DNA from: Myxococcota bacterium
GTDB lineage: Bacteria > Myxococcota > SpSt-1050
Length of the DNA: 13,503 nucleotides
Assembly: GCA_049969675.1 (NCBI GenBank)
Contig: JBMFOP010000081.1
Coordinates: forward strand, 1 to 13,503
Direction of reading: 5' to 3'
Positions within the stretch are counted from its first letter, which is position 1, and every line of letters begins with the position of its first letter. This document shows positions 1 to 13,503 of this stretch, piece after piece. Under the pieces are notes generated by a model that saw only the letters and a program-made list of their open reading frames with translations, ran no database searches and had not been told where the DNA came from. The position numbers and the translations under genes are program-made.

Positions 1-1354
1 CTGCCTCTGCCCTCTTTTTAGCCTCTTCTTCCTGTTTGAGTTTTCTCTTCTTTTCTCTCTCAATATCCTCCTTCTTGTTCTTTAACTTCTTCTCTGCCTC
101 TGTTATATATTTTGCAACCCTCTTCCCGTTTTCAGAATTTTCATCAATATGTGATAAATACTCTTTCAGGTATTTTATTGAATCTAAATATCTCTGAATT
201 GTATCTCGCCCCTCAAACTCTCTGTCCATATCCAGATAGAGTATCCCGAGATTAAAGAGGGTCTCGTATAGATTCGGTCTCTCCTTTAAGAGCTCAAAAT
301 ATATCTTTTCTGCCTCCTCATATTGTTTCTCACCTCTCAATGCATTGGCGAGATTCAATTTCGCCTCATAAAACTTTGCATTATATCGCAAGGCAATCCT
401 GAATTCCTGAATTGCCGCCCTGTAATCCTCTGCTGTGGAATAGAGTACTCCCAGATTATTATGAACCTCTGGAAGGTCATATCTAATGCTAACTGCCTTT
501 TTTAACATCTCAATAGCTGCTGGCAGATTATTATTTTGCTTATAAATGAACGAGTATTCAATATATATCTTTTCATTATCTGGGGCTATCTCTTTTGCAT
601 TATCCAGAATATTCTGTGCTAGCTCAAATTTCTTATCCCTTATATATGTCCTCGCGAGGAGAACCATAGTCTCGGCATTCTTCTCATCCACCTTTAGAGT
701 CTTCATTGCATTCTTTCTCGCATCTTCAATCCTGTTGGTCTTGAGATAAAGCATTGTAAGTGCATTCTTGAGCTTGCTTGACCTCTTAAATTTACCTATC
801 TGGTCCAGAATAAATCTCTCAGCATCCTGAGGTCTTCCCATTTTGACATATAACATCGTAAGATTTTCAGCGGCCATAAAATAGTCTGGCTTTGCCTTTA
901 GCGCCGCAAGATAATATCTCTCCGCCGAAGGGAAATCACCCTTCCACTCATATATTAAAGCAATGTTATAGTAAGCCTTATAAAGTCTCGGGTCGGATTT
1001 TACCGCCCCCTCAAACATCTGAATTGCATCCTCAGGTTTTATATAAGCAATCTTAAGAGCTTCATTGAAGGTATTCAGCGCTGTCGGATTAAATTCTATT
1101 TTCTCTTCCTCATCTTCAACCTTCATCCCGACAGATTCCAGATTTGGTCCGGTCTCCTCCTCCTCTATCTTCTCTGAAACCTCCTCTTTCTTCTCCCCTT
1201 TTATGGAGACCTCTTCCTTCTTTACCTCCTCCTTTGCCGCCTCCTGAACAGGTTGCGTGAGAACCTCCTCCTTCTTCTTGCCGGTTGCGCAGGCAAATAG
1301 GGCAATTAAAATAAGGGTACTCAAACTATATTTTACAAATACCTTTAAATTCAT
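1..1354 (-). CDS. TPR-repeat lipoprotein, GltE/AglT-like; 3'-truncated by the window edge (451 codons visible)
   Basis: Not in the ORF track; translated by hand. ATG at 1354, 6 nt after the upstream TGA. It reads MNLKVFVKYSLSTLILIALFA-CATGKKKEEV..., with lipobox LFAC (Cys22 at 1289-1291), an E/K-rich linker, and many TPRs (KAYYNIALIYEWKGDFPSAERYY, EVHNNLGVLYSTAEDYRAAIQEF, EAKLNLANALRGEKQYEEAEKIY, ETLFNLGILYLD). A charged coiled-coil tail stays open to position 1. A TPR lipoprotein directly after a GltD-like gene matches the gltD-gltE order; orthology is inferred. Confidence 0.85.
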   Translation of the reverse strand, partial: MNLKVFVKYSLSTLILIALFACATGKKKEEVLTQPVQEAAKEEVKKEEVSIKGEKKEEVSEKIEEEETGPNLESVGMKVEDEEEKIEFNPTALNTFNEALKIAYIKPEDAIQMFEGAVKSDPRLYKAYYNIALIYEWKGDFPSAERYYLAALKAKPDYFMAAENLTMLYVKMGRPQDAERFILDQIGKFKRSSKLKNALTMLYLKTNRIEDARKNAMKTLKVDEKNAETMVLLARTYIRDKKFELAQNILDNAKEIAPDNEKIYIEYSFIYKQNNNLPAAIEMLKKAVSIRYDLPEVHNNLGVLYSTAEDYRAAIQEFRIALRYNAKFYEAKLNLANALRGEKQYEEAEKIYFELLKERPNLYETLFNLGILYLDMDREFEGRDTIQRYLDSIKYLKEYLSHIDENSENGKRVAKYITEAEKKLKNKKEDIEREKKRKLKQEEEAKKRAEA

Positions 1355-1360
1355 AAAATC

Positions 1361-4300
1361 TCAATCTTCATCAATCTTCTTTGTCTCCTCTTTCTTCTCT
1401 ATCTTCTCCTGTTTATCAGGGGCCCTCTTCTCTTCCTTCATATCCTTCTTTGGCTCTTCCTCCTCATCTACCTTCTTCCCACTTCCTTCTTTTGCCTCGT
1501 TTACTGGTTTTTGTTCGTCCTTTTTTTGCACATTCTGTAAACCCTTCTCTTCAATCTTCTGAGCAGGAGGCTGTAATGATTCATCCCTCAACATCTCCAC
1601 CTTTGTTATGGCATCAAATGAGTTGACTGCCACAAAATCCTCAGTGGCAATATTTATCGGGTCTTTCATAAGTGGATATTTATTTGGTGAGAGTTTATTT
1701 AAGCTCTCAAGCGTCTTTTTAGTCCACTCATTGACCACCTTCAATTCTATAGCCTTCTTCCTTGCCTTTTCATAGAGTGCTATAGCAGCCTCTTCAATAG
1801 GTGCGGCAAATTCAGCAAGCGAAGATTGATAGACTATCTTTTCTTCCTCGGTCTTTAGCTCCTTCGGAAGTGGTGCCTCGTAGAACGATTCAGCAAATCT
1901 CTGTTTTGCATAACCAATCTTATACATAGCAGCCAGTATCCACTCTCCAACCAGATATTTTGCAATGTTGGAATATGCCTCCTCAACCTTCAGGTTCCAT
2001 TTTGCCTTCTCGTTTAATTGCTGTTTCAATATCTTTTGATTCTGGGTGCCCCCTATTTTTATCTTCTCATACTGTGCGAAGAGCTCCTCCGCCTTCATAA
2101 ATTCGCACTTCGCTGCCAGATATGCCGGTTTGTTATTCCCCGGTGGGAGCCTTCTCTTTTCAAACTCGGCAATAGTCTTATCGTAGTACTGTCTGGCGAG
2201 CTTCATATTCTTCATCTTCTCATAGGTCTCACCTATCTTATAAGTAAGTTCAACAATGGTCCCGCCCTGTTTTGGGTCTTTATAAAACTTATTGATATAT
2301 TTCTCTGCCGTCTTTATCAGATTATTGTAGTCTTTCGCCTTCTCATAGACGATTATTGATTTATAGAATGCAAATGGCGCCTTCTCATGATTCGGGAACA
2401 TCTCTGCAAATCTCAAATACTGCCTTGCCGCCTCATCGTATCTCTGAAGATTCTCAAGGGCATTTGCCGCATTGAATAGAGCAGGGGCACGATTCTTTGA
2501 TTCAGGATATTTCTCCACGAGCATCAGGTAGTTGTTTATTGCCTCTTCAAACTTAAAACCGTTCTCCTGATTATATGCCACCTTAAAAAGTGCCTCATCT
2601 GCAAATGAAGACTTAGGGTACTCCTTAAATATTCTTTCATAGACAGTGGCAGCTGATTCAAATCTTCTGGACATCTCAAATGCATAAGCCGCATTCTGTA
2701 ATGCCTTGTCAGCATATTCGTGTTTGGGCTTCTTATTGACGAATTTAATAAGTTCAGTGGCTGCCTCTTCATACTTCTTTGCCTCAAAGAGGGTCATCGC
2801 ATAAGAGAAGAGGGCACCACCTTCAAGAATATTCATCTCCTCATTAAACTTCTCATCTCCAAAACCTTTCTTCTGAAAATCCTCGGTTACCTTTGCAAGA
2901 TTTATCCAATCCTTATATACCAGATATGTCTGTGTTATCAGGCGGGCTGCAACCTTTGCCCTATCACTCTTTGGGTATTTATCCACAATAAATTTGAGCC
3001 TCTCCCTCGCCTCATCAATGTGAAACCTCTGATAATAGACCAGTGCGAGTGTAAACTGATAATCCGGCACCTTCTCATAATCGGGGTAGTTTTTGATAAC
3101 ATATTCAATGGCTGAGATATATTTCTGTCTGAGTTCATCGATCGGAAGCGGCTTAATCTGTGATGGGTCTTTGATATCCTTTGCCTGCCAGGTAGTATAC
3201 TCCTCAATCTTCTTCTCCTTCAGCAGTCTGTTTATCTCATCCTCATATGCAACGGGCGCATAAATGGCTGATTCCCTCTTATATTGAGTACCCGCCGGAG
3301 AGTCCCTCACATTCTCATATTCACGAGCGGCGTCCAGAAAACGAAGCGAATAATATAATGCGTCGGCATAGTAGTAGTTCATCTCATATGCCTCTTTGGA
3401 GTTCTTAAACAACCTCAAATACTCTGCATAGGCGTCAGCGGCCTTTTTGAAGTATTCAATCGCCTCCTCCTGCTTTCCAGCGTTTTTGTAAAATTGTGCC
3501 TGCTGGTGAATATATAGAGCCGCGGTATACAGTGCCCTTTCAATTAGAGAATTTGCATTTGCCCTTGCCTCCGGGTCATCTTTATTCCTTTTAAACCATT
3601 CAGAGTTTTCAGAATAGTTCCTGACCAGAATCATCCTCTCTCTTGACGCAGCCTCATTGTCTTTTTCACCTATCAGATAGCTATTAATAATCTTCTCCTG
3701 AATCAGCGGTGCCTGGGGTGAATATGGGTCAAGAGTCAGATAATGTTTATATGCCTCAACCGCGGCTGCAAAGTTTGACTTCCCTTCAAGGACAAGGCCG
3801 GGCGTCTGATACAGAAGGTCACCCATCTCCAGAAAGACCTCTTTTTCATAGGGCGGGTTCTTCCGCTGCTTGAAGAATTCAATGAGGCGACTTACACCGG
3901 AATTACTCCAGTGGTCATCAGCAAAGCAGATCGCAATATATTTAATAGATTCTGGCCTCATCTCTGACTGTAGTTTGATATCAGTCCCCTTCTTTGCATC
4001 GTAAAATTCAATCAGGTCAGCAAAGAGATTGACAGCCTTTGCAAGGTCATCCTTTCTATAATATGTCCAGGCGAGTTTATAGAGTGCGTTTGGATACAGG
4101 ATTGACTCCTTATCAACCATTGCCTTCCTGTATGAATCTATTGCCTTATCCAGTTCTGGTGGGTCAGCGTCATCAAAGTAATAATTACCTATTCTCATCC
4201 AGCTTTCAGCATAAAATTTGCTCTTTGGATAATTCTGAACTAATCTGTAAAAGACCTCCACCGCCTCCTTCTTCTCATCCTGTTCATACAGCGCATAACC

Positions 4301-4990
4301 GAGCAGATAATAGACCGCATCCATATATTGATAATCTGGGAAGTCAGATACAATTCTCTGATATAATTTTATACAATTCTCAAGCCTCTTTCTCGGCTTC
4401 TCCGGCAGGGACTTAATCTTGCCATCCTCATAATCTTTTTCCAGTTGTGCATAACTATCAGTAGCCATAAAGTATTCATCTGTCGCCTTCTCAAAATATA
4501 GTTCTGCAAGTCTGAACATTGCATGGGGGGTATATCGTGGGTCATTGGGATATTTTCTCAAAAATTCCTCAAGCCGGGCAATGGCTGTATCTCTGAGTGA
4601 TCTCTGCTCTGCCTCAAGTTGCTGAATGGATTTTTCGTATATTCCCAGGACACTTTCCCGTTTTGTATCCCTCTTTAACTTAACTATAGTCACTATCTCC
4701 TGCTTATACTCGGTAGCCGCCTTCTCAAACTGCTCCACCACCTGAGTGACCTCTTTTATAAGTCTGTCATATTCACTCTCTGGCTTCAACCCTGGTGCTG
4801 ATACAGATTCTGTCTTCTTCTCAGTGGCTGCCCCCTTCTGCTCCGATTTTAAGTCCACCTTATCTTTTTTAGGTTCACACTTTTTTGCTGGCTCTTCTTT
4901 ACACTCCGTCTCCTGTGCAAGAAGTTCAAATGGGTATATCATAACAGCGAGGCATACAATCAACAATATATATGTGAAAAACCTACTCAT
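1361..4990 (-). CDS. Large periplasmic TPR protein (1209 aa), GltD/AgmU (NfsD)-like
   Basis: Sec-type signal peptide (MSRFFTYILLIVCLAVMIYPFELLAQ) and many TPRs with 'YPxS' caps (HAMFRLAELYFE, AVYYLLGYALYE, ESWMRIGNYYFD, ALYKLAWTYYR, EALFKVAYNQE). The C-terminal block EWILAAMYKIG..FAESFYEAPLPKEL..EE..VYQSSLAEFAAPIEEAAIALYEKARKKAIELKVVNEW is typical, from recall, of myxobacterial GltD/AgmU-family proteins. It ends in a K/E-rich disordered tail. Confidence 0.8.
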   Translation of the reverse strand: MSRFFTYILLIVCLAVMIYPFELLAQETECKEEPAKKCEPKKDKVDLKSEQKGAATEKKTESVSAPGLKPESEYDRLIKEVTQVVEQFEKAATEYKQEIVTIVKLKRDTKRESVLGIYEKSIQQLEAEQRSLRDTAIARLEEFLRKYPNDPRYTPHAMFRLAELYFEKATDEYFMATDSYAQLEKDYEDGKIKSLPEKPRKRLENCIKLYQRIVSDFPDYQYMDAVYYLLGYALYEQDEKKEAVEVFYRLVQNYPKSKFYAESWMRIGNYYFDDADPPELDKAIDSYRKAMVDKESILYPNALYKLAWTYYRKDDLAKAVNLFADLIEFYDAKKGTDIKLQSEMRPESIKYIAICFADDHWSNSGVSRLIEFFKQRKNPPYEKEVFLEMGDLLYQTPGLVLEGKSNFAAAVEAYKHYLTLDPYSPQAPLIQEKIINSYLIGEKDNEAASRERMILVRNYSENSEWFKRNKDDPEARANANSLIERALYTAALYIHQQAQFYKNAGKQEEAIEYFKKAADAYAEYLRLFKNSKEAYEMNYYYADALYYSLRFLDAAREYENVRDSPAGTQYKRESAIYAPVAYEDEINRLLKEKKIEEYTTWQAKDIKDPSQIKPLPIDELRQKYISAIEYVIKNYPDYEKVPDYQFTLALVYYQRFHIDEARERLKFIVDKYPKSDRAKVAARLITQTYLVYKDWINLAKVTEDFQKKGFGDEKFNEEMNILEGGALFSYAMTLFEAKKYEEAATELIKFVNKKPKHEYADKALQNAAYAFEMSRRFESAATVYERIFKEYPKSSFADEALFKVAYNQENGFKFEEAINNYLMLVEKYPESKNRAPALFNAANALENLQRYDEAARQYLRFAEMFPNHEKAPFAFYKSIIVYEKAKDYNNLIKTAEKYINKFYKDPKQGGTIVELTYKIGETYEKMKNMKLARQYYDKTIAEFEKRRLPPGNNKPAYLAAKCEFMKAEELFAQYEKIKIGGTQNQKILKQQLNEKAKWNLKVEEAYSNIAKYLVGEWILAAMYKIGYAKQRFAESFYEAPLPKELKTEEEKIVYQSSLAEFAAPIEEAAIALYEKARKKAIELKVVNEWTKKTLESLNKLSPNKYPLMKDPINIATEDFVAVNSFDAITKVEMLRDESLQPPAQKIEEKGLQNVQKKDEQKPVNEAKEGSGKKVDEEEEPKKDMKEEKRAPDKQEKIEKKEETKKIDED

Positions 4991-4993
4991 AAA

Positions 4994-7297
4994 TCACTTC
5001 TCAATATCAAACTCAAACTCTTCCTGAACACCCTTTATCTCTTTAGCCTGATCCTCTCTCAACTTCCCTATCTTCTAATCTACCTCCTCCTTCTGCTTCC
5101 ACGCTACATCTACAATTCCAACATCCGCCTTGAGTACCAGGTCCGAGAATAGTTTATTCACCTGTCTGAAGCCAGCATAACCAATCTTACCAACCAGTTC
5201 CTTTGAATCATCAGTCATTATATTGGCTTCCTTCTTATATTCTTCAAGATTCTTCTTCTCCCGCTCAATGATCTCTGTTAGAGCCTTTGCCTTCTTATCA
5301 ACAGCGGCATCAATTCTCGCATCAAATTTCTTAAATTCCTCTTCGTGCTGATTCAATCTTGAGATGAGGTTATCCACCCTATTTAGATACCCGCTATCCT
5401 CCTGAGAGAGGCGATTCTTAAAGTTGTCAAACAACCTCCTCTCATCATCCTCAACCTTTTTTAACTCCAGTCTCTTATTCTGGTCTTCAGATAGGACGCT
5501 CAATGCCCCGATTTTACCTCTCTCCTTCTTTATCTCAGCAGTATAGATTGCTATATCCTGCTCAATGGCATTTACATTGTCCCACTCTGTCTTAACCTTT
5601 GTGGCAAAATCCTCTTCCAGAGATTTATCTCCGAGTTTACCTTTGTTGTCATTGAGCCACTTTTCAATGGCAAAGAGCTGTGCCTTCATACCTTCAAGTG
5701 CAATCTGTAGTTGATGAATAACTTTCTCTATATCAGATATATGTTTTACTATCTCCCGTTCCTTCTCCTCTAACTCCTTAGCCCCTTTCGGTAGAGAATC
5801 AACAACCCTTCTCAATTCATCCTTCTTCTTTCTCAACTCCTCAAGGTTCTTCCTCTCATCCTGAGAGATATATTTCTCTATTATTTTAGCCCTTGTCTGA
5901 GTGATATCAGTCCGCAACTTATCAAGACCCATCTTTATATCTACCGCCTTAAGTTTCGCCTCTCTGAGTTGTGGAAATATAACAGATTTATCCGCGCTCT
6001 TCAATTTTGCCTCAATAGCATCTGCCATCACCAAAATCTCATCAATAGAGGTGACATTCCCTTTGATATCGGTGGCGATTGTAAGTGCCTTCTTTACCTT
6101 GCTGTCCGTAGATGCCCAGTTGAAAGCCACCGGTGGAAGAATCTTCTTCAATGCCATTCCATCTGGCTCTTTTAGGAGCAGATCCTCAAAGTATTGAACC
6201 GGATTATCCCTCTCTTCCAGAATTGAATGAAGCTGTTCTTTGACCGGATAATATCTATCAACCATCTCCTGAAAATTTTCAACTGCACTATTGTAATCTC
6301 CGAGCTTCATAATCACCGAGCCATAAAGTGCTTTTGCATTCAGAAGTGCCGGTGTCTCATTGGTAGACAGGAGCATAATCTCAAGCGTCTGCTTTGCCTT
6401 TTGAAATTCACCCGACTTTATATATATCCACGATATCTCATAAAGGGCCTCTTCAAAGTGTGGCGATTCCCTCTGAATACCCTGATATGCATCCAGCGCC
6501 TCTGGATACTTCCCCAATTCATAGTAGATTCTACCGATTGCAAGAGTCGCCTCTTCCTTCAGGTCCCTGTGCTCCGGGGTCTGAGGGTCAATGCCCTGAA
6601 TACTCTTGAATATCGCAAGTGCATTGTCGTAATTCTTCTTCTTTACCTCAATGACTCCCTGATAAAAGCGGGCATTGATATAATACTCGGAATTCCTATC
6701 AATCAACCCAAATATCTCACTCGCCCTTGAGAGGTCTCCCCTCTTATAGAGTGTCTTCCCCAATGTAAAATATATCCCGCTCGTAATTGAAGAGTTTGGC
6801 AGTTGCTTAACGATGTTAAAATACCTCTCAATACCTTCATAGTTATTTGTCAGGGACGCAATCTGGATTACCCTCTCAAGAGCGGTATAAAAGTACTTTT
6901 TATCACCCTTGTTGAGCAACTTATTGAAATAATTTCGTGCACCATAATAATTTTTTATCTTAAATAGCGATTCGGCAAGCAGATTGACTGCATCCCAGTA
7001 CTGGGGCTCCTTTTCATTTGCCACATCCTCAACAATATCGTAGATAAGAACCGATGCGGATTGATAATCCTGAAGATAGAATAATGTCTCAGCCCTTGCA
7101 AATCTCTTTGAGAACCTCTCTATATCAAGAGACATCTCCTCCGGTATAATATTTTCCTTCAGGATAAAGTTCATCGTCTGTTCAAGTGAATACAACTTCT
7201 TCTCATAGTTATCCAATTGCGAAGAGATACTGCTCTCCTGAGCCATTAATAGGTTCTCAAAAACTATAGATATCAGGATAACTCTTATTATTGACAT
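4994..7297 (-). CDS. Secreted TPR plus long coiled-coil protein (possibly GltC-like); 740 aa to the TAG at 5075-5077, or 767 aa if that TAG is read through to the TGA at 4994-4996
   Basis: N-terminal hydrophobic signal (MSIIRVILISIVFENLLMAQ) and GGTGG SD-like motif 7 nt upstream. TPRs in the N-terminal half (NARFYQGVIEV, EATLAIGRIYYELGKYPEALDAY, EALYEISWIY); heptad/charged coiled coil in the C-terminal half. After ...VAWKQKEEVD-TAG the frame continues KIGKLREDQAKEIKGVQEEFEFDIEK-TGA. The CDS is secure; the true C-terminus is uncertain. Confidence 0.75.
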
Positions 7298-7313
7298 CTC
7301 TTACCCACCATAA

Positions 7314-8075
7314 TCACTTTGAAGAAACCGGTGCCGCCTTCTTCTCCTCTACGACAGGCTTGACCTCCACATCAAATCTGACCGCGGGCCTATCCTTGAG
7401 GTCTGTCGTGAGACTTCCCTTCTCGTATGCCACTATCTTCACCTTTGTTATCTTCCCCTCCTCAACATAAAATGTATAACTGGACTTTATCTTAAATTTA
7501 TATTGATTCAGGTATGAGAATAGTCCAAACCCATTCCCTCTATAGACCAGATAGACACTTATTGTATGATTGCCGGGGACCATACTGGATGATGGCAGGA
7601 TCTCAAAGACATCAGTATTCTCAAGAGAACCATCCTGATTTACCTTGCTGAATATCTGGGTACCATCAAGTGAAAACGAGACCGACTCAATCTTAAAAGA
7701 TGAGCCCATCTCGTTATTAAATATTAAATTTATCCTGGCACCTGATACCTTACCCATCAGGACAGTCTCCTGAAGGAGCGTCAACCTTGCCTTGGAGCGA
7801 AAGACCCTCTCTTTGAGCTCATTTACCTTCTCCTCCAGATTCTTTATCTGAATAGAATATGCCTCATTCATAACATTTGCATTATCTACCTGCTGTGCAT
7901 TTGCTGCGGGTTTGGCTGCGGTATCTGATGCCTTTACCTCATCTGGCTGCTCACTCCTGACCTCTGTCGCTGGCTGATTCTGACTCCCCTTCTGTTCGGG
8001 GGCATTCTGCGCGATGGATAATACAGGTAATAAAATTAACAAATAAATAAGCAGTATTTTAAGATTCCAATTCAT
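7314..8075 (-). CDS. Secreted protein (253 aa): signal peptide, low-complexity linker, short coiled coil and a C-terminal beta-rich domain; first gene of the TPR operon
   Basis: Signal peptide MNWNLKILLIYLLILLPVLSIAQ; Q/P/A-rich linker; coiled coil IKNLEEKVNELKERVFRSKARLTLLQETVL; beta-rich region (FSLDGTQIF...PGNHTISVYLVYRGNGFGLFSYL...FYVEEGKITKVKIVAYEKG). SD-like AAAGGGG at 8083-8089, 7 nt before the ATG. It resembles, from recall, the conserved hypothetical proteins that precede such TPR clusters in myxobacteria. Confidence 0.8.
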   Translation of the reverse strand: MNWNLKILLIYLLILLPVLSIAQNAPEQKGSQNQPATEVRSEQPDEVKASDTAAKPAANAQQVDNANVMNEAYSIQIKNLEEKVNELKERVFRSKARLTLLQETVLMGKVSGARINLIFNNEMGSSFKIESVSFSLDGTQIFSKVNQDGSLENTDVFEILPSSSMVPGNHTISVYLVYRGNGFGLFSYLNQYKFKIKSSYTFYVEEGKITKVKIVAYEKGSLTTDLKDRPAVRFDVEVKPVVEEKKAAPVSSK

Positions 8076-8161: not shown

Positions 8162-9826
8162 CTATTTTACAGGGTTCGCCTTTAATGTAGTTTTGCCGTT
8201 TTTTATAATTACATCAAACTTAACATCTAAATAGTTGCCCTTCTTCATCAACTCCGCCTTTGTTACCTTAATCTTCTCAATGAAGTTGTCAAAATTTAGA
8301 TTCTCAATAGATTCACCATTCTGAAGCCTCATTGCCACATATCTATCAAAAAGCCTCCTAAACTCATCCAGTTCTTTTGCCTGTGCAGATTGTTTTGCCT
8401 TATCAAGTGCCTCAATCTCTTCAAGAGAGGCGACCATAGTGGCATCAGGGTTATAACCTTCCTCCCTCTCATTTTCTATCATCTCCCCGACATCCTCAGA
8501 TGTGATCTCACCCCCAACAAATATCTCCCCGGACATAGGTTTGGGCACAACCCCCTTCTGAGACTCATTCGCCATTACAACTCTTTGCTGAAAATCTAAA
8601 TCTTTATTGACATCCAGACTTGCTGTCTCAGTTTTAATCTCCCTGGATGCAGGTTTTTGAGATACCTTTATCTCACCTGTGAATGTCCTTCTGATATCAT
8701 CCTTCTGAATATCTGTGAAGACCGGTACAGACTTTGAAGGCGAACTGACCTTCTCTCCTGCCACGAAGAGGAGTTTGTTGATACTCCTCACCAGTTCATC
8801 AAATGGAGAAGGTACCTTTACCTCCGGTATCTGTACCGAGAGATTTCCTTTAATCGCCGGTGCAAGTGAATCATTTATCAGGTTGATGGTAGAATAAATA
8901 GTCCTTGAGATACTGAAAGACACTATTATTCCTATAATGAGAACACCTACAAGCACTACCAGCACAATAAACTGGATATCTCTCATATCACTAAACTTCC
9001 CTGCAAGGCTCGCCGTGATAGCGACCTTTATATCTCTGCCTGGCACAAAATCCTGAAAAATTGTAATCATCGCTGGTATATTTGTTGGAAAATATGGGCT
9101 GTCTTCTCCCTTTAATCTGCCGTGCAACAGAATCCTCTCTTTGCTCTGCATAATACTTACAAGAACCTCTGGCGCCTGTTGTCTGAATGTTGAACCTATC
9201 AGATTGTCTTTAGAGAAGATACTGATATCAAAAGATGTAATATCCCTTATACTATAGGCAAGCGAATCATCCATCATCTTTACAACTATAACCGAACCGG
9301 CAATTCCCCCCTCCATGAAGACCGGCGCAAGAGATACGATATAAATCCTATTTTTGTGGGTAAAGATATCACAGGAGATATTATTCTCTTTTACCTTTGA
9401 GAAGAGTTCGGATGAGATAATTACATTTAAGATATCATCCTCCACAAGTGATATTAACGCCTTATCTGCGATATCGTAATAGGCAAGAATATATTCTGTC
9501 TTCGGATTAAAGTTTAGCTCTAACTTACCAACAATTATGGAGTGCATCTTCAACTTATCCATCTGTCCTTTCTGATTCAGGAGTCTCTTCTTCCTCATCT
9601 CATCGGGTACCATACTTATCTGATTGGCAACACTCACCGCCTTTAATCTGTTTGAAATTCTAAAATTCTCAAATACCTCACCAAGCCTCCCTGTTGCCCC
9701 AATGAGCTCTGTCTTACTATTTGTAAGAACCATGTTGTATGAGCCATAGAAAATGAAGAGGGCAAATGCAAATACCGTGGATATCAAAATAAATGGAATT
9801 AAAAACCAGAGCTTAAATTTTAGCAT
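8162..9826 (-). CDS. Inner-membrane sensor-like protein (554 aa), MXAN_5187-family architecture: TM, Cache-like extracytoplasmic domain, TM, HAMP-like segment, linker, MXAN_5187-type C-terminal domain
   Basis: TM1 (LWFLIPFILISTVFAFALFIFYG); Cache-like segment (IYIVSLAPVFMEGGIAGSVIVVKMMDDSLAYSIRDITSFDISIF); TM2 (FIVLVVLVGVLIIGIIVSFSI); HAMP-like segment (GNLSVQIPE...FDELVRSINKLL). The C-terminus FRRLFDRYVAMRLQNGESIENLNFDNFIEKIK...DVKFDVIIKNGKTTLKANPVK matches my recollection of the MXAN_5187 C-terminal domain. SD AGGTGA at 9833-9838. Ends in TAG. Confidence 0.75.
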   Translation of the reverse strand: MLKFKLWFLIPFILISTVFAFALFIFYGSYNMVLTNSKTELIGATGRLGEVFENFRISNRLKAVSVANQISMVPDEMRKKRLLNQKGQMDKLKMHSIIVGKLELNFNPKTEYILAYYDIADKALISLVEDDILNVIISSELFSKVKENNISCDIFTHKNRIYIVSLAPVFMEGGIAGSVIVVKMMDDSLAYSIRDITSFDISIFSKDNLIGSTFRQQAPEVLVSIMQSKERILLHGRLKGEDSPYFPTNIPAMITIFQDFVPGRDIKVAITASLAGKFSDMRDIQFIVLVVLVGVLIIGIIVSFSISRTIYSTINLINDSLAPAIKGNLSVQIPEVKVPSPFDELVRSINKLLFVAGEKVSSPSKSVPVFTDIQKDDIRRTFTGEIKVSQKPASREIKTETASLDVNKDLDFQQRVVMANESQKGVVPKPMSGEIFVGGEITSEDVGEMIENEREEGYNPDATMVASLEEIEALDKAKQSAQAKELDEFRRLFDRYVAMRLQNGESIENLNFDNFIEKIKVTKAELMKKGNYLDVKFDVIIKNGKTTLKANPVK

Positions 9827-9931: not shown

Positions 9932-12900
9932 TTACCACTCGGGCTCCATCTTTCCATTAAACAGGAAATATAGCAAACCACCAGTTACACCACCATTTTT
10001 CACATATGATTGATAAATCCCTCCATCTGATGCTACAAACAGATTGACCTGATTGGCAGATGATGCCGTAAGATTTGGGTCTTTATATATACTTGATACC
10101 TTCCAGTTGTCTCTATTGAAACAGTTTGTCTTATTCATATTACACCTTGCCATCCTGAGTTCATTGCTTGAAATATAGGTCACATAAATATTTTTGTTAT
10201 AGACTGATATATCTACCTGATAATCTGTGCCGTAATAACCGCTGACATTCTGAATATCTACAAACTCCCAGTTGTTAAGGTTATTACATAGGGATGAAGG
10301 ACTGAATGCACATATCCCAACTTTGAGGATCTTATCTATAACCAATGTTGCATACTGATTGACTGTGGATGTATCCCTTGCAGCCATATTTCTATTTTTG
10401 CTAATCCGATAGCTCGCACTCGTAGTGTAGAGATCCATAGAGACCCAATCAGATTGAGACTCACAACCATTAGCATAAAGGCAATAATATTTCTTCAATA
10501 TATTATCAACCCTTCTCAAAATATAGAATGAGCTTGTAGAATTACCGAGTGAAGGAGTGGAGGTTGTGTCTGTATCTGAACTAACGAGCACATCTCTTGT
10601 CCAGTTTGCAATATTCATACAGTCAGTTGAGGTATAACAATAATGGAATCTTATCTGATTTGATGTATCACGGGAGACTATTGCAACGCGCCCATTGGCA
10701 ATTACCATAGAGGGTTCTACTCCAGAGGCAGATATAATAAGTTTGCCCGCAGCAGTCCAATCAGAAGGTGAATCACATCCGGTAGATAGGTTACAGATTG
10801 CTATTCTGAGGTTATTTGATGAATCATGATATGAGATATATACATTTGTTGCATCCACCACTATCTGTGGATATCTGATTGTTGCACCAAGGTCATGGAC
10901 AAGGACACCAAATATCCAATTTGCAGCAATACTACAGTCATTTGACAAATTGCAGTATGTAAAATAGAGATCGTCATTTGAAACATATGTAACATACAAA
11001 GTGTTATTTGCAACGGCAGAAGAATATTGGGCAAAATTATTTGATATCTGCACATTATTAGTATTTGTAAAACCTTTTGCAAATCTACGCACAGAGATAG
11101 GTGGTGAATCATCACTCACCTCAACACCTCTTACGCTGTTGGTAGATGTATAATATGTATTTGAATCTGGTATGTTAACAGTATTTTTGCTTATGTTAGA
11201 ATCTGGTATATAGACGCTATTATCCCAATTTGTATAAGAATCGGCATCATACAGATTGATATAGCCATCTACATAATTCAGGGAGTTCCAGAGATATGTA
11301 AATGAGTCTGGAGAAGGACCTGCAACAGAGTTCAAAGGAGATACAAGAGATGGTAATAGCAGCCTTGCAGAGGCATATAGAGGGGCACCAATTGTAATTG
11401 CTATATTTGAATCAAATGTTGCCACCTCTGGAAAATCTATATACTCCTGATATTCTCCAGGTATTGTTTTTACCCAAAGGTTCTCACTCATACAACCAGA
11501 TGCATCCGGGTCATTACAACTCAAATAGTAGAGAGAGCCTTCTGATTTCCTGGCACCTATAATATAAAGTTTCTTATTGGAGTAAACAATTCTGGATAGA
11601 AACATATCATCCAGAGCGGTATCGTATGCAGTTCCAATTGACCAATCACCTACTGCATCACAGTTTGTATTGATAGCACATTTTGCCACCTTCTGTGCAT
11701 AATCAGAGCCATTCTTATTTGACCAGGTCAGATAGAGGTCCTTACCAGAACTGAACATATCTAAATAATTTGAGTCGTTGCTATTATATAGAGGTTGAGG
11801 ATAAGTCGTCCAATCAGCAGCGTTATCACAAAGTGTACTGGGCACACAGGTTGCTATATTTAGTGGAGTATTCCCACCGGATTTTGCACCAAAATATGCC
11901 ACCCATACCCTTGAGTCATTTGCAACAATAGATAAGGTAGTATCATTTGAAGTATCCCCTGCAACCGATAAATCAACCTTTGACCAGTTTGCTGAATTAG
12001 TACAGTCAGAATATAGTGAACAGGAGGCAATCCTCGGAGTATTCCCATAAAAGTAGGCAAAATAGAGCCGCTTACCATCCGTTATCATTGGATTGCTATC
12101 GGTATTTAATTTTGTTGGAGTTGATGGTTCTATATTATAATTGTTCCAGTTTGCCGCATTCATACAATCATTACTCCTTGAACATCTAAAGAAGTTGATA
12201 GTATAAGAACAGGTAGGTATACAGGAATTGGCCATGACAGCAGGAATATAGTAATATGAACCATCTGTTATCACTTTTGTTTTATTAAACACACTCCACA
12301 ACATACCTATATTCAGTGCTGTCTTCTCCCAGTTATCATCATCTTTACAGTCCTTTGTATCCACCGGACATTTATATAATTCTAATGTACTACCACCGAA
12401 ATCTTTCAATACTCCGGGACCGGCAATAAATAAGTCACCATCAATATATGAGACAGTCGGGGAGTAGATACGAGCTGATATATTTTCTGGCACCGTTATG
12501 TTTGCCCTTGCAATACCTATCAATACATTGTAAACGGTATTATATCCACTTTGATTACCTGCGTAATCCACTGCCTTTACTCTGAAGGTATAGTTCAAAC
12601 CATTTGTGAGTCCGGTAATAGTTGCAGTGGTTGTATCACCATTTACATTCAATGATGTCCAGCCTCCACCACTGTTGTATTCTACAATATAGTTCTTTAT
12701 TCCACTACCTGTATAATCAGATGAAGCAGTCCAGCTCACAATTGCGGCACGGCTCTTTGGTGTAACTGCAATATTTGCCGGAGTTGACGGAGGTACAGTA
12801 TCAAGCATAACACCATTTGAAATTGAATAGCCACTGTAATTTCCAGCCTTATCTTTGACACAGGCACTCACATATTTATATCCACTGTTAGAAGGTAAAG

Positions 12901-13503
12901 TCCAGTTAAATGTCTTTATACAGGGCGTCTCGGTACAACCTGAAAAATTATATAAATAGTTAGCAGAGGCACAGGAGAGTGAATTTGAGTTGCCAAACGC
13001 CACAAATAAGTCTGTGCCATAGAAGACATTGTCATCGGCTGTAAGTTTAATACAGACAGATGTATTATTGGTATATTGAATAGGTGTTGTGCAGGTACTC
13101 TCATATATCTCAAGTGATAGAGGTGTTGGCTTCACATTATCCAGAATTATTGAATCACTACGAGTTACACTCTCACGACCCGAGCCATCCTTAACTTTGG
13201 CATATACTGTCTTATTCCCATTTGCCGAACTCAATATATATGAGGCTGGATTGACATAACCTATCCAGCTTGCACCGGCAAATGCAGCGTCCTCAGATAT
13301 CATCATATATTTTATAGCACCAGGGGAGATATCACTCGCTGTAAAATATATGTGTACCCCTGTATTTACTGTTGTATCTGGATTCCCGTTGTTAATGACA
13401 ATTGAACTGAGAGTCGGATTATCAAAATCAACTTTAATACTATCACTCCCGGTGCTACTTATATTACCTGCCACATCTCTGACTCTAACATATACATACC
13501 TTG
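9932..13503 (-). CDS. Very large extracellular/surface protein, 5'-truncated: Ig-like repeats, FN3, Cys-rich beta-propeller, degenerate FN3, second Cys-rich beta-propeller
   Basis: The frame is open past the track's GTG start (13474) to the window edge and reads RYVYVRVRDVAGNISS, so the GTG is an internal Val. Ig-like end motifs (VRVRDVAGN, AKVKDGSGR, ACVKDKAGN). Clear FN3 at about 12540-12800 (PPSTPANIAVT..IVSWTAS..YIVEY..ITGLTNGLNYTFRVKAVDYAGN). S/T/N/Y/C-rich composition; TAA stop at 9932-9934. Confidence 0.85.
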   Translation of the reverse strand, partial: RYVYVRVRDVAGNISSTGSDSIKVDFDNPTLSSIVINNGNPDTTVNTGVHIYFTASDISPGAIKYMMISEDAAFAGASWIGYVNPASYILSSANGNKTVYAKVKDGSGRESVTRSDSIILDNVKPTPLSLEIYESTCTTPIQYTNNTSVCIKLTADDNVFYGTDLFVAFGNSNSLSCASANYLYNFSGCTETPCIKTFNWTLPSNSGYKYVSACVKDKAGNYSGYSISNGVMLDTVPPSTPANIAVTPKSRAAIVSWTASSDYTGSGIKNYIVEYNSGGGWTSLNVNGDTTTATITGLTNGLNYTFRVKAVDYAGNQSGYNTVYNVLIGIARANITVPENISARIYSPTVSYIDGDLFIAGPGVLKDFGGSTLELYKCPVDTKDCKDDDNWEKTALNIGMLWSVFNKTKVITDGSYYYIPAVMANSCIPTCSYTINFFRCSRSNDCMNAANWNNYNIEPSTPTKLNTDSNPMITDGKRLYFAYFYGNTPRIASCSLYSDCTNSANWSKVDLSVAGDTSNDTTLSIVANDSRVWVAYFGAKSGGNTPLNIATCVPSTLCDNAADWTTYPQPLYNSNDSNYLDMFSSGKDLYLTWSNKNGSDYAQKVAKCAINTNCDAVGDWSIGTAYDTALDDMFLSRIVYSNKKLYIIGARKSEGSLYYLSCNDPDASGCMSENLWVKTIPGEYQEYIDFPEVATFDSNIAITIGAPLYASARLLLPSLVSPLNSVAGPSPDSFTYLWNSLNYVDGYINLYDADSYTNWDNSVYIPDSNISKNTVNIPDSNTYYTSTNSVRGVEVSDDSPPISVRRFAKGFTNTNNVQISNNFAQYSSAVANNTLYVTYVSNDDLYFTYCNLSNDCSIAANWIFGVLVHDLGATIRYPQIVVDATNVYISYHDSSNNLRIAICNLSTGCDSPSDWTAAGKLIISASGVEPSMVIANGRVAIVSRDTSNQIRFHYCYTSTDCMNIANWTRDVLVSSDTDTTSTPSLGNSTSSFYILRRVDNILKKYYCLYANGCESQSDWVSMDLYTTSASYRISKNRNMAARDTSTVNQYATLVIDKILKVGICAFSPSSLCNNLNNWEFVDIQNVSGYYGTDYQVDISVYNKNIYVTYISSNELRMARCNMNKTNCFNRDNWKVSSIYKDPNLTASSANQVNLFVASDGGIYQSYVKNGGVTGGLLYFLFNGKMEPEW
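10000..11020 (-). repeat. Protein-level tandem repeat array 2 (6 copies, C-x5/7-C-x5-W), predicted propeller blades
   Basis: FTYCNLSNDCSIAANW; IAICNLSTGCDSPSDW; FHYCYTSTDCMNIANW; KYYCLYANGCESQSDW; VGICAFSPSSLCNNLNNW; MARCNMNKTNCFNRDNW. They are preceded by strands such as LYVTYV, VYISYH and IYVTYI. Boundaries are approximate. Confidence 0.8.
11400..12460 (-). repeat. Protein-level tandem repeat array 1 (6 copies, about 55-60 aa period, C-x5/7-C-x5-W), predicted propeller blades
   Basis: LYKCPVDTKDCKDDDNW; FFRCSRSNDCMNAANW; IASCSLYSDCTNSANW; IATCVPSTLCDNAADW; VAKCAINTNCDAVGDW; YLSCNDPDASGCMSENLW. Each is preceded by a hydrophobic strand such as LYFAYF, VWVAYF or LYLTW. Boundaries are approximate. 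Confidence 0.8.

Follow-up and report, generated by a model that had tools for sequence, protein, structure and literature searches.

Introduction

Myxococcus xanthus possesses the Agl-Glt core complex and the paralogous clusters G3/nfs, G4, and G5, of which G4 and G5 are described as having no known function and no motility phenotype (PMC3169522). In a published model, GltC touches GltD through one helix pair only (PMC11761067). The operon considered here, from the genome assembly of a Myxococcota bacterium (G000), is similar to the Agl-Glt core complex and to these paralogous clusters. It appears to share with those loci the gltC-like, gltD-like, and gltE-like gene order (PMC3169522), but the product of its gltC-like gene scores 75 bits against the GltC equivalog NF033756, under the cut-off of 450 bits.

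The gltC-like gene, a cell-envelope gene, is interrupted near its 3' end by an in-frame TAG. Internal stops are described for spurious or recent pseudogenes in bacterial assemblies (PMC11017572) and, as sense codons, for pyrrolysine recoding and the archaeal Genetic Code 34 (10.1101/2024.09.30.615893). As in the described pseudogenes, one stop sits in an otherwise intact gene and is absent from near-identical assemblies, and the G000 assembly has more such lesions than its neighbour G002, a genome of the same genus; unlike in those pseudogenes, the stop is near-terminal, with 27 of 767 residues lost (PMC11017572). The likeness to Genetic Code 34 lies in an in-frame TAG inside a conserved gene. 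Such recoding, however, needs PylRS, tRNA-Pyl, and PylBCD and shows many TAG sense codons, none of which is found here, and other copies of the gene have lysine at this position (10.1101/2024.09.30.615893).

The DNA analysed, hereafter the window, is a stretch of 13,503 nucleotides. Its first-pass annotation gave readthrough, suppression, or pyrrolysine as the headline and named a nonsense allele or a consensus error as a further possibility. If true, TAG recoding in a myxobacterial-type organism would have been notable. In this study, the TAG was evaluated by comparison with homologues and near-identical copies, and by a survey of stop-codon usage and recoding machinery in G000.

Materials and methods

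Homologues of the gltC-like gene were searched for in 41 genomes, comprising the window's own genome (G000) and 40 relatives. Thirty loci were obtained, 29 of them outside G000. The conserved Trp could be aligned in 28 of these 29; the other locus (L008) ends at a contig edge and was left out. A pattern scan of metagenomes returned one locus (L034), which is 100% identical to a G002 stretch and was not counted as independent. A scan of a genome collection returned two loci, which are the same stretches as L005 and L006 and added nothing.

Two near-identical protein records, P0003 and P0004, were compared with the window product at the protein level only. Among four runs (X1 to X4), contigs cover the site in X1 only; X2 covers 5883-6000 only, and X3 and X4 cover none of the window. 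No RNA data set containing the window was found. The comparison used contigs only, and contigs drop rare variants.

For the stop census, G000 was compared with 2.19 Mb of G002, i.e., 132 stretches amounting to about two thirds of a genome of approximately 3.3 Mb. Twenty-two stop events were kept; by eye, 14 of them were then set aside as shadow ORFs on the antisense strand and 4 because they lay ahead of the true start. Ninety further events were filtered out, and re-screening of those near a start or an end recovered one real case. Seven frameshift flags were raised; of the six inspected, four were judged real and two were junk.

tRNA genes were predicted using ARAGORN at the default setting and at the relaxed setting ps90. 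At ps80, 7 CUA hits appeared among 966 and were disregarded as noise. Each Pyl profile search found one control genome over the cut-off.

Results and discussion

Position of the premature TAG

On the minus strand of the window, the premature TAG at 5077-5075 is codon 741 of an ORF that starts at 7297. The surrounding codons read GAG GAG GTA GAT TAG AAG ATA GGG AAG TTG. The TAG is followed by 26 sense codons and then by a TGA at 4996-4994. From this TGA to the next ATG the gap is 3 nt, vs 84 nt from the TAG; the neighbouring gaps are 16 and 6 nt. No hairpin was found 3' of the TAG, the downstream RNA folding no better than shuffles (z = +0.99), and an Rfam search at the locus gave one chance match (E 3.5) and no relevant element. 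Re-reading of the sequence thus bore out what the first-pass annotation had recorded of the reading frame, of the gap sizes, and of the lack of an obvious hairpin.

Lysine at codon 741 in other copies

The codon at this site is AAG in G002 and G003 (same genus) and in G004 (same order). More widely, a sense codon stands eight codons past the conserved Trp in 28 of 28 aligned homologous loci, and the residue at the position of codon 741 is variable among them (K, R, N, T, E, D, H, A, Q, and S). G003 was considered as a second interrupted allele and rejected; its tail is interrupted by a run of N, and the one TGA counted there comes after that run.

Closer copies agree. The 90%-identity cluster of the 740-aa window product has two other members, P0003 and P0004, both of 767 aa and both with Lys741, encoded on contigs of 22,106 and 10,308 bases, respectively. 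At the other 766 positions, P0004 matches the window product throughout, and R158K is the sole difference in P0003. In run X1, a hot-spring metagenome with a contig depth of about 6, the plus strand has T at 5077 where the window has A, and the codon is AAG. Neither the P0003/P0004 comparison nor that with X1 revealed a cluster of private differences around the TAG site. The proposal that codon 741 is a sense position within a longer protein, which was to be checked in related genomes, is upheld by these comparisons; so is the milder suggestion of a nonsense allele or consensus error, near-identical copies keeping AAG or Lys one base away. The headline of readthrough, suppression, or pyrrolysine is not supported, given the AAG of the X1 contig and the lysine of the near-identical records.

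Other differences were seen in X1. At 4742, X1 has CAT in place of CAG, which changes Gln83 to His in the 1209-aa gene, and G002 has the base of the window; given this departure, the X1 contig is either not error-free or another haplotype. Two X1 contigs end on either side of 5306, the third codon position of Ala664. A synonymous polymorphism at 5306 is likely, with more than one haplotype in X1, and the differences at 4742 and 5306 likely represent within-population variation.

The TAG is best explained, at a probability of roughly 0.96, as an ordinary private nonsense allele or a miscalled base, with nothing in the genome to recode it. A single A-to-T change at window position 5077 (coding strand) would have turned the lysine codon 741 (AAG) of a 767-codon gltC-like TPR gene into TAG. 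The change is private, being present in this assembly and absent from all other copies examined. With a real allele, RF1 would terminate translation at residue 740, and the last 27 residues, with a predicted helix, would be lost. Ribosomes would then leave the 84 nt ahead of the gltD-like start untranslated, which may weaken translational coupling.

Nonsense allele and consensus error

Between the two forms of this reading, a real strain-level nonsense allele has about an even chance and is slightly favoured over consensus error. On the latter explanation, whose odds fall a little short of even, the T arose solely through sequencing or consensus error in a metagenome assembly of low depth, and the cells themselves have AAG. 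Low coverage is described as yielding spurious internal stops (PMC11017572), the X1 contig and P0004 have lysine, and lesions are in excess in G000, where 7 of 1257 ORFs are damaged vs 1 of 1279 in the reverse comparison with G002. X1 or P0004 may share its source material with the window, which would favour error; recoding gains nothing either way. Against error and for a real allele stand the completeness of the genome (99.91%), the lack of private differences near the site, and the recurrence of some G000 lesions in other assemblies, such as the mvhG-type fragment found on two contigs. Part of the excess thus looks biological.

The 1257 compared ORFs contain five internal stops, namely this TAG, three TGA (C1:79890, C8:20732, and C39:5752), and one TAA (C11:21833), and frameshifts occur in four G000 genes, on contigs C11, C35, C39, and C86. 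The mixture of stop types and frameshifts speaks for mutation or error and against a change of code. TGA read as Trp was considered, as two TGAs face TGG, and was rejected; TGA ends 268 aligned genes, and one of the cases lies beside a frameshift.

Several of the damaged genes were compared individually. The gene at C39:5725-6680 (L173:1373-2331) encodes the small subunit of an F420-non-reducing (Mvh-type) hydrogenase and has a TGA at codon 10. A one-base deletion lies about 120 nt past this TGA, and the operon neighbours are intact. Two contigs have its truncated product on record; a third record begins at residue 31, as a shared early stop would predict. The loss of this mvhG-type gene may be real and shared. 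A 579-aa gene at C8:20366-22105 (L172:1513-3252) is cut by a TGA at Trp123; another assembly has it broken elsewhere, at residue 193, and a third has it intact. Lesions that recur in other assemblies make real decay in the species likely. C11 has a frameshift besides the stop at 21833, C35 has two frameshifts at 23090-23345, and C86 has one at 2180. The sole lesion seen in G002 is a frameshift at L123:7232-7236, in a gene whose G000 orthologue encodes 986 aa. With several broken genes of mixed type in G000, single in-frame stops in this assembly need to be checked against near-identical records ahead of any proposal of recoding.

Readthrough

A real amber allele may also be read through, by leaky or programmed readthrough, with some full-length protein still made. 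The tail is intact and in frame, and an A directly follows the TAG, a context favouring amber suppression. An intact tail is, however, also expected from a very recent change, and ordinary G000 stops have A after TAG more often than any other base (161/350). The downstream RNA offers neither structure nor a relevant Rfam element, and TAG is absent from all 28 homologous loci and from both near-identical protein records, with no sign of selection for TAG. Readthrough is thus very improbable. Similarly small odds attach to a specific form of it, in which the amber codon of this motility-related envelope operon is real and fixed in one population, and context-dependent readthrough that needs no dedicated tRNA keeps the protein partly functional; if true, the TAG would be a tunable switch on a Glt-like machine.

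Stop-codon usage and suppression

An amber suppressor tRNA, or partial genome-wide reassignment of TAG, is less probable still and is largely refuted by the stop census. TAG accounts for 452 of 2054 stops of long ORFs in G000. It stands at 175 of 812 exactly aligned G000 gene ends, and 91 of those 175 face TAA or TGA in G002; TAG is an ordinary working stop in this genome, interchangeable with TAA and TGA at gene ends. Codon 741 is the only TAG interruption among the 1257 compared ORFs. RF1 is intact and over the cut-off, with 358 aa and the PVT and GGQ motifs. No CUA-anticodon tRNA was found among the 44 ARAGORN tRNAs of G000 or at ps90. The sole point in favour of a suppressor concerns the rRNA region of G000, which is unassembled, with no 16S primer site and with tRNA-Ile(GAT) and tRNA-Ala(TGC) absent. 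These two tRNAs are usually rRNA-linked, and with this region unassembled the exclusion of a missed tRNA is not strict.

The C-terminal tail

That the gene naturally ends at KEEVD, the tail being non-coding chance, has a negligible probability and is already refuted. An open run of 26 codons by itself is not beyond chance. Among 457 TAG-ended ORFs of at least 150 aa in this genome, 28% have at least 26 open codons after the stop, a figure that counts runs into in-frame next genes too. Homology decides that the tail belongs to the gene. Past the conserved Trp, 34-49 residues follow in 28 of 28 aligned homologues vs 7 in the window, and the near-identical records have the full 767 aa. The tail (4997..5074, minus strand) is conserved and under purifying selection, as judged from the homologue alignment and pN/pS. 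Of its 26 residues, 21 match the G002 orthologue; in this comparison tail and body have the same pN (0.101), with a pN/pS of 0.18 and 0.13, respectively. The TGA at 4994..4996 (minus strand), 3 nt before the next ATG, is the natural stop of the full-length gene; in the G002 orthologue a TAG ends the gene at this codon, likewise with a 3-nt gap. G001 has the first 286 residues only, at a contig end; its C-terminal query gave no match and is hence uninformative.

A helix is predicted by AlphaFold at residues 743-766 in the tail, at low confidence. With an alignment of 4 sequences, pLDDT is about 30-50 over residues 690-767, too weak to show tail contacts.

Pyrrolysine

Insertion of pyrrolysine at the TAG, for which nothing but the codon itself speaks, is the least probable reading and is refuted by the absent PylRS, unless PylRS lies in unassembled DNA: in a 99.9% complete genome, PylS (best 21.6 bits vs a cut-off of 178), PylSn (N-terminal; no match), PylB (73 vs 348), PylC (31 vs 248), and PylD (no match) were not found over the cut-off, and the position, being variable among homologues, is not a catalytic site. 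The first-pass suggestion of Pyl or suppressor machinery accordingly found no support, either in the genes searched for or in a second TAG-interrupted gene among the 1257 ORFs. A narrow literature search returned no paper pairing pyrrolysine with Myxococcota. The case is of an ordinary kind and has no importance for genetic-code biology.

Operon and neighbouring genes

The full gene (4994..7297, minus strand) has 767 codons, 740 aa being encoded as assembled, and profile searches and homologues identify its product as a TPR and long-helix protein, a distant GltC paralogue. A true GltC equivalog is encoded on another G000 contig (573 bits). Downstream, on the same strand, 1361..4990 encodes a 1209-aa multi-TPR protein that has no internal stop and is probably GltD-like, judging by size and position. 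It is followed at 2..1354 (minus strand) by a gene for a GltE-like TPR protein (87 bits vs a cut-off of 225 bits), which runs off the contig end. Upstream, at 7314..8075 (minus strand), lies a gene for a 253-aa protein with no Pfam or NCBIfam family, and the same arrangement occurs in G002.

The G002 operon goes on with TolQ-like, TolR-like, and GltG-like genes; all Glt and Tol scores are under the cut-off. The G000 orthologues of these three genes are on another contig (C122) and have no internal stops. Window 2-8075 and C122 would together form a divergent second operon of the Glt core type, in addition to the true gltC elsewhere in the genome, consisting of the orphan 253-aa gene, the gltC/D/E-like genes, the TolQ/TolR-like genes, and the GltG-like gene, and split over two G000 contigs.

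Two further genes on the minus strand occupy the rest of the window. The gene at 8162-9826 encodes a 554-aa membrane protein whose C-terminal MXAN_5187 domain scores over the cut-off, and has a normal TAG end, as the first-pass annotation had noted. The other, at 9932-13501, is open at the 5' end and encodes more than 1180 aa, with a fibronectin III domain and, after it, repeated segments that contain Cys and end in NW or DW. Its matches are fn3 and, weakly, the MXAN_2561 family only.
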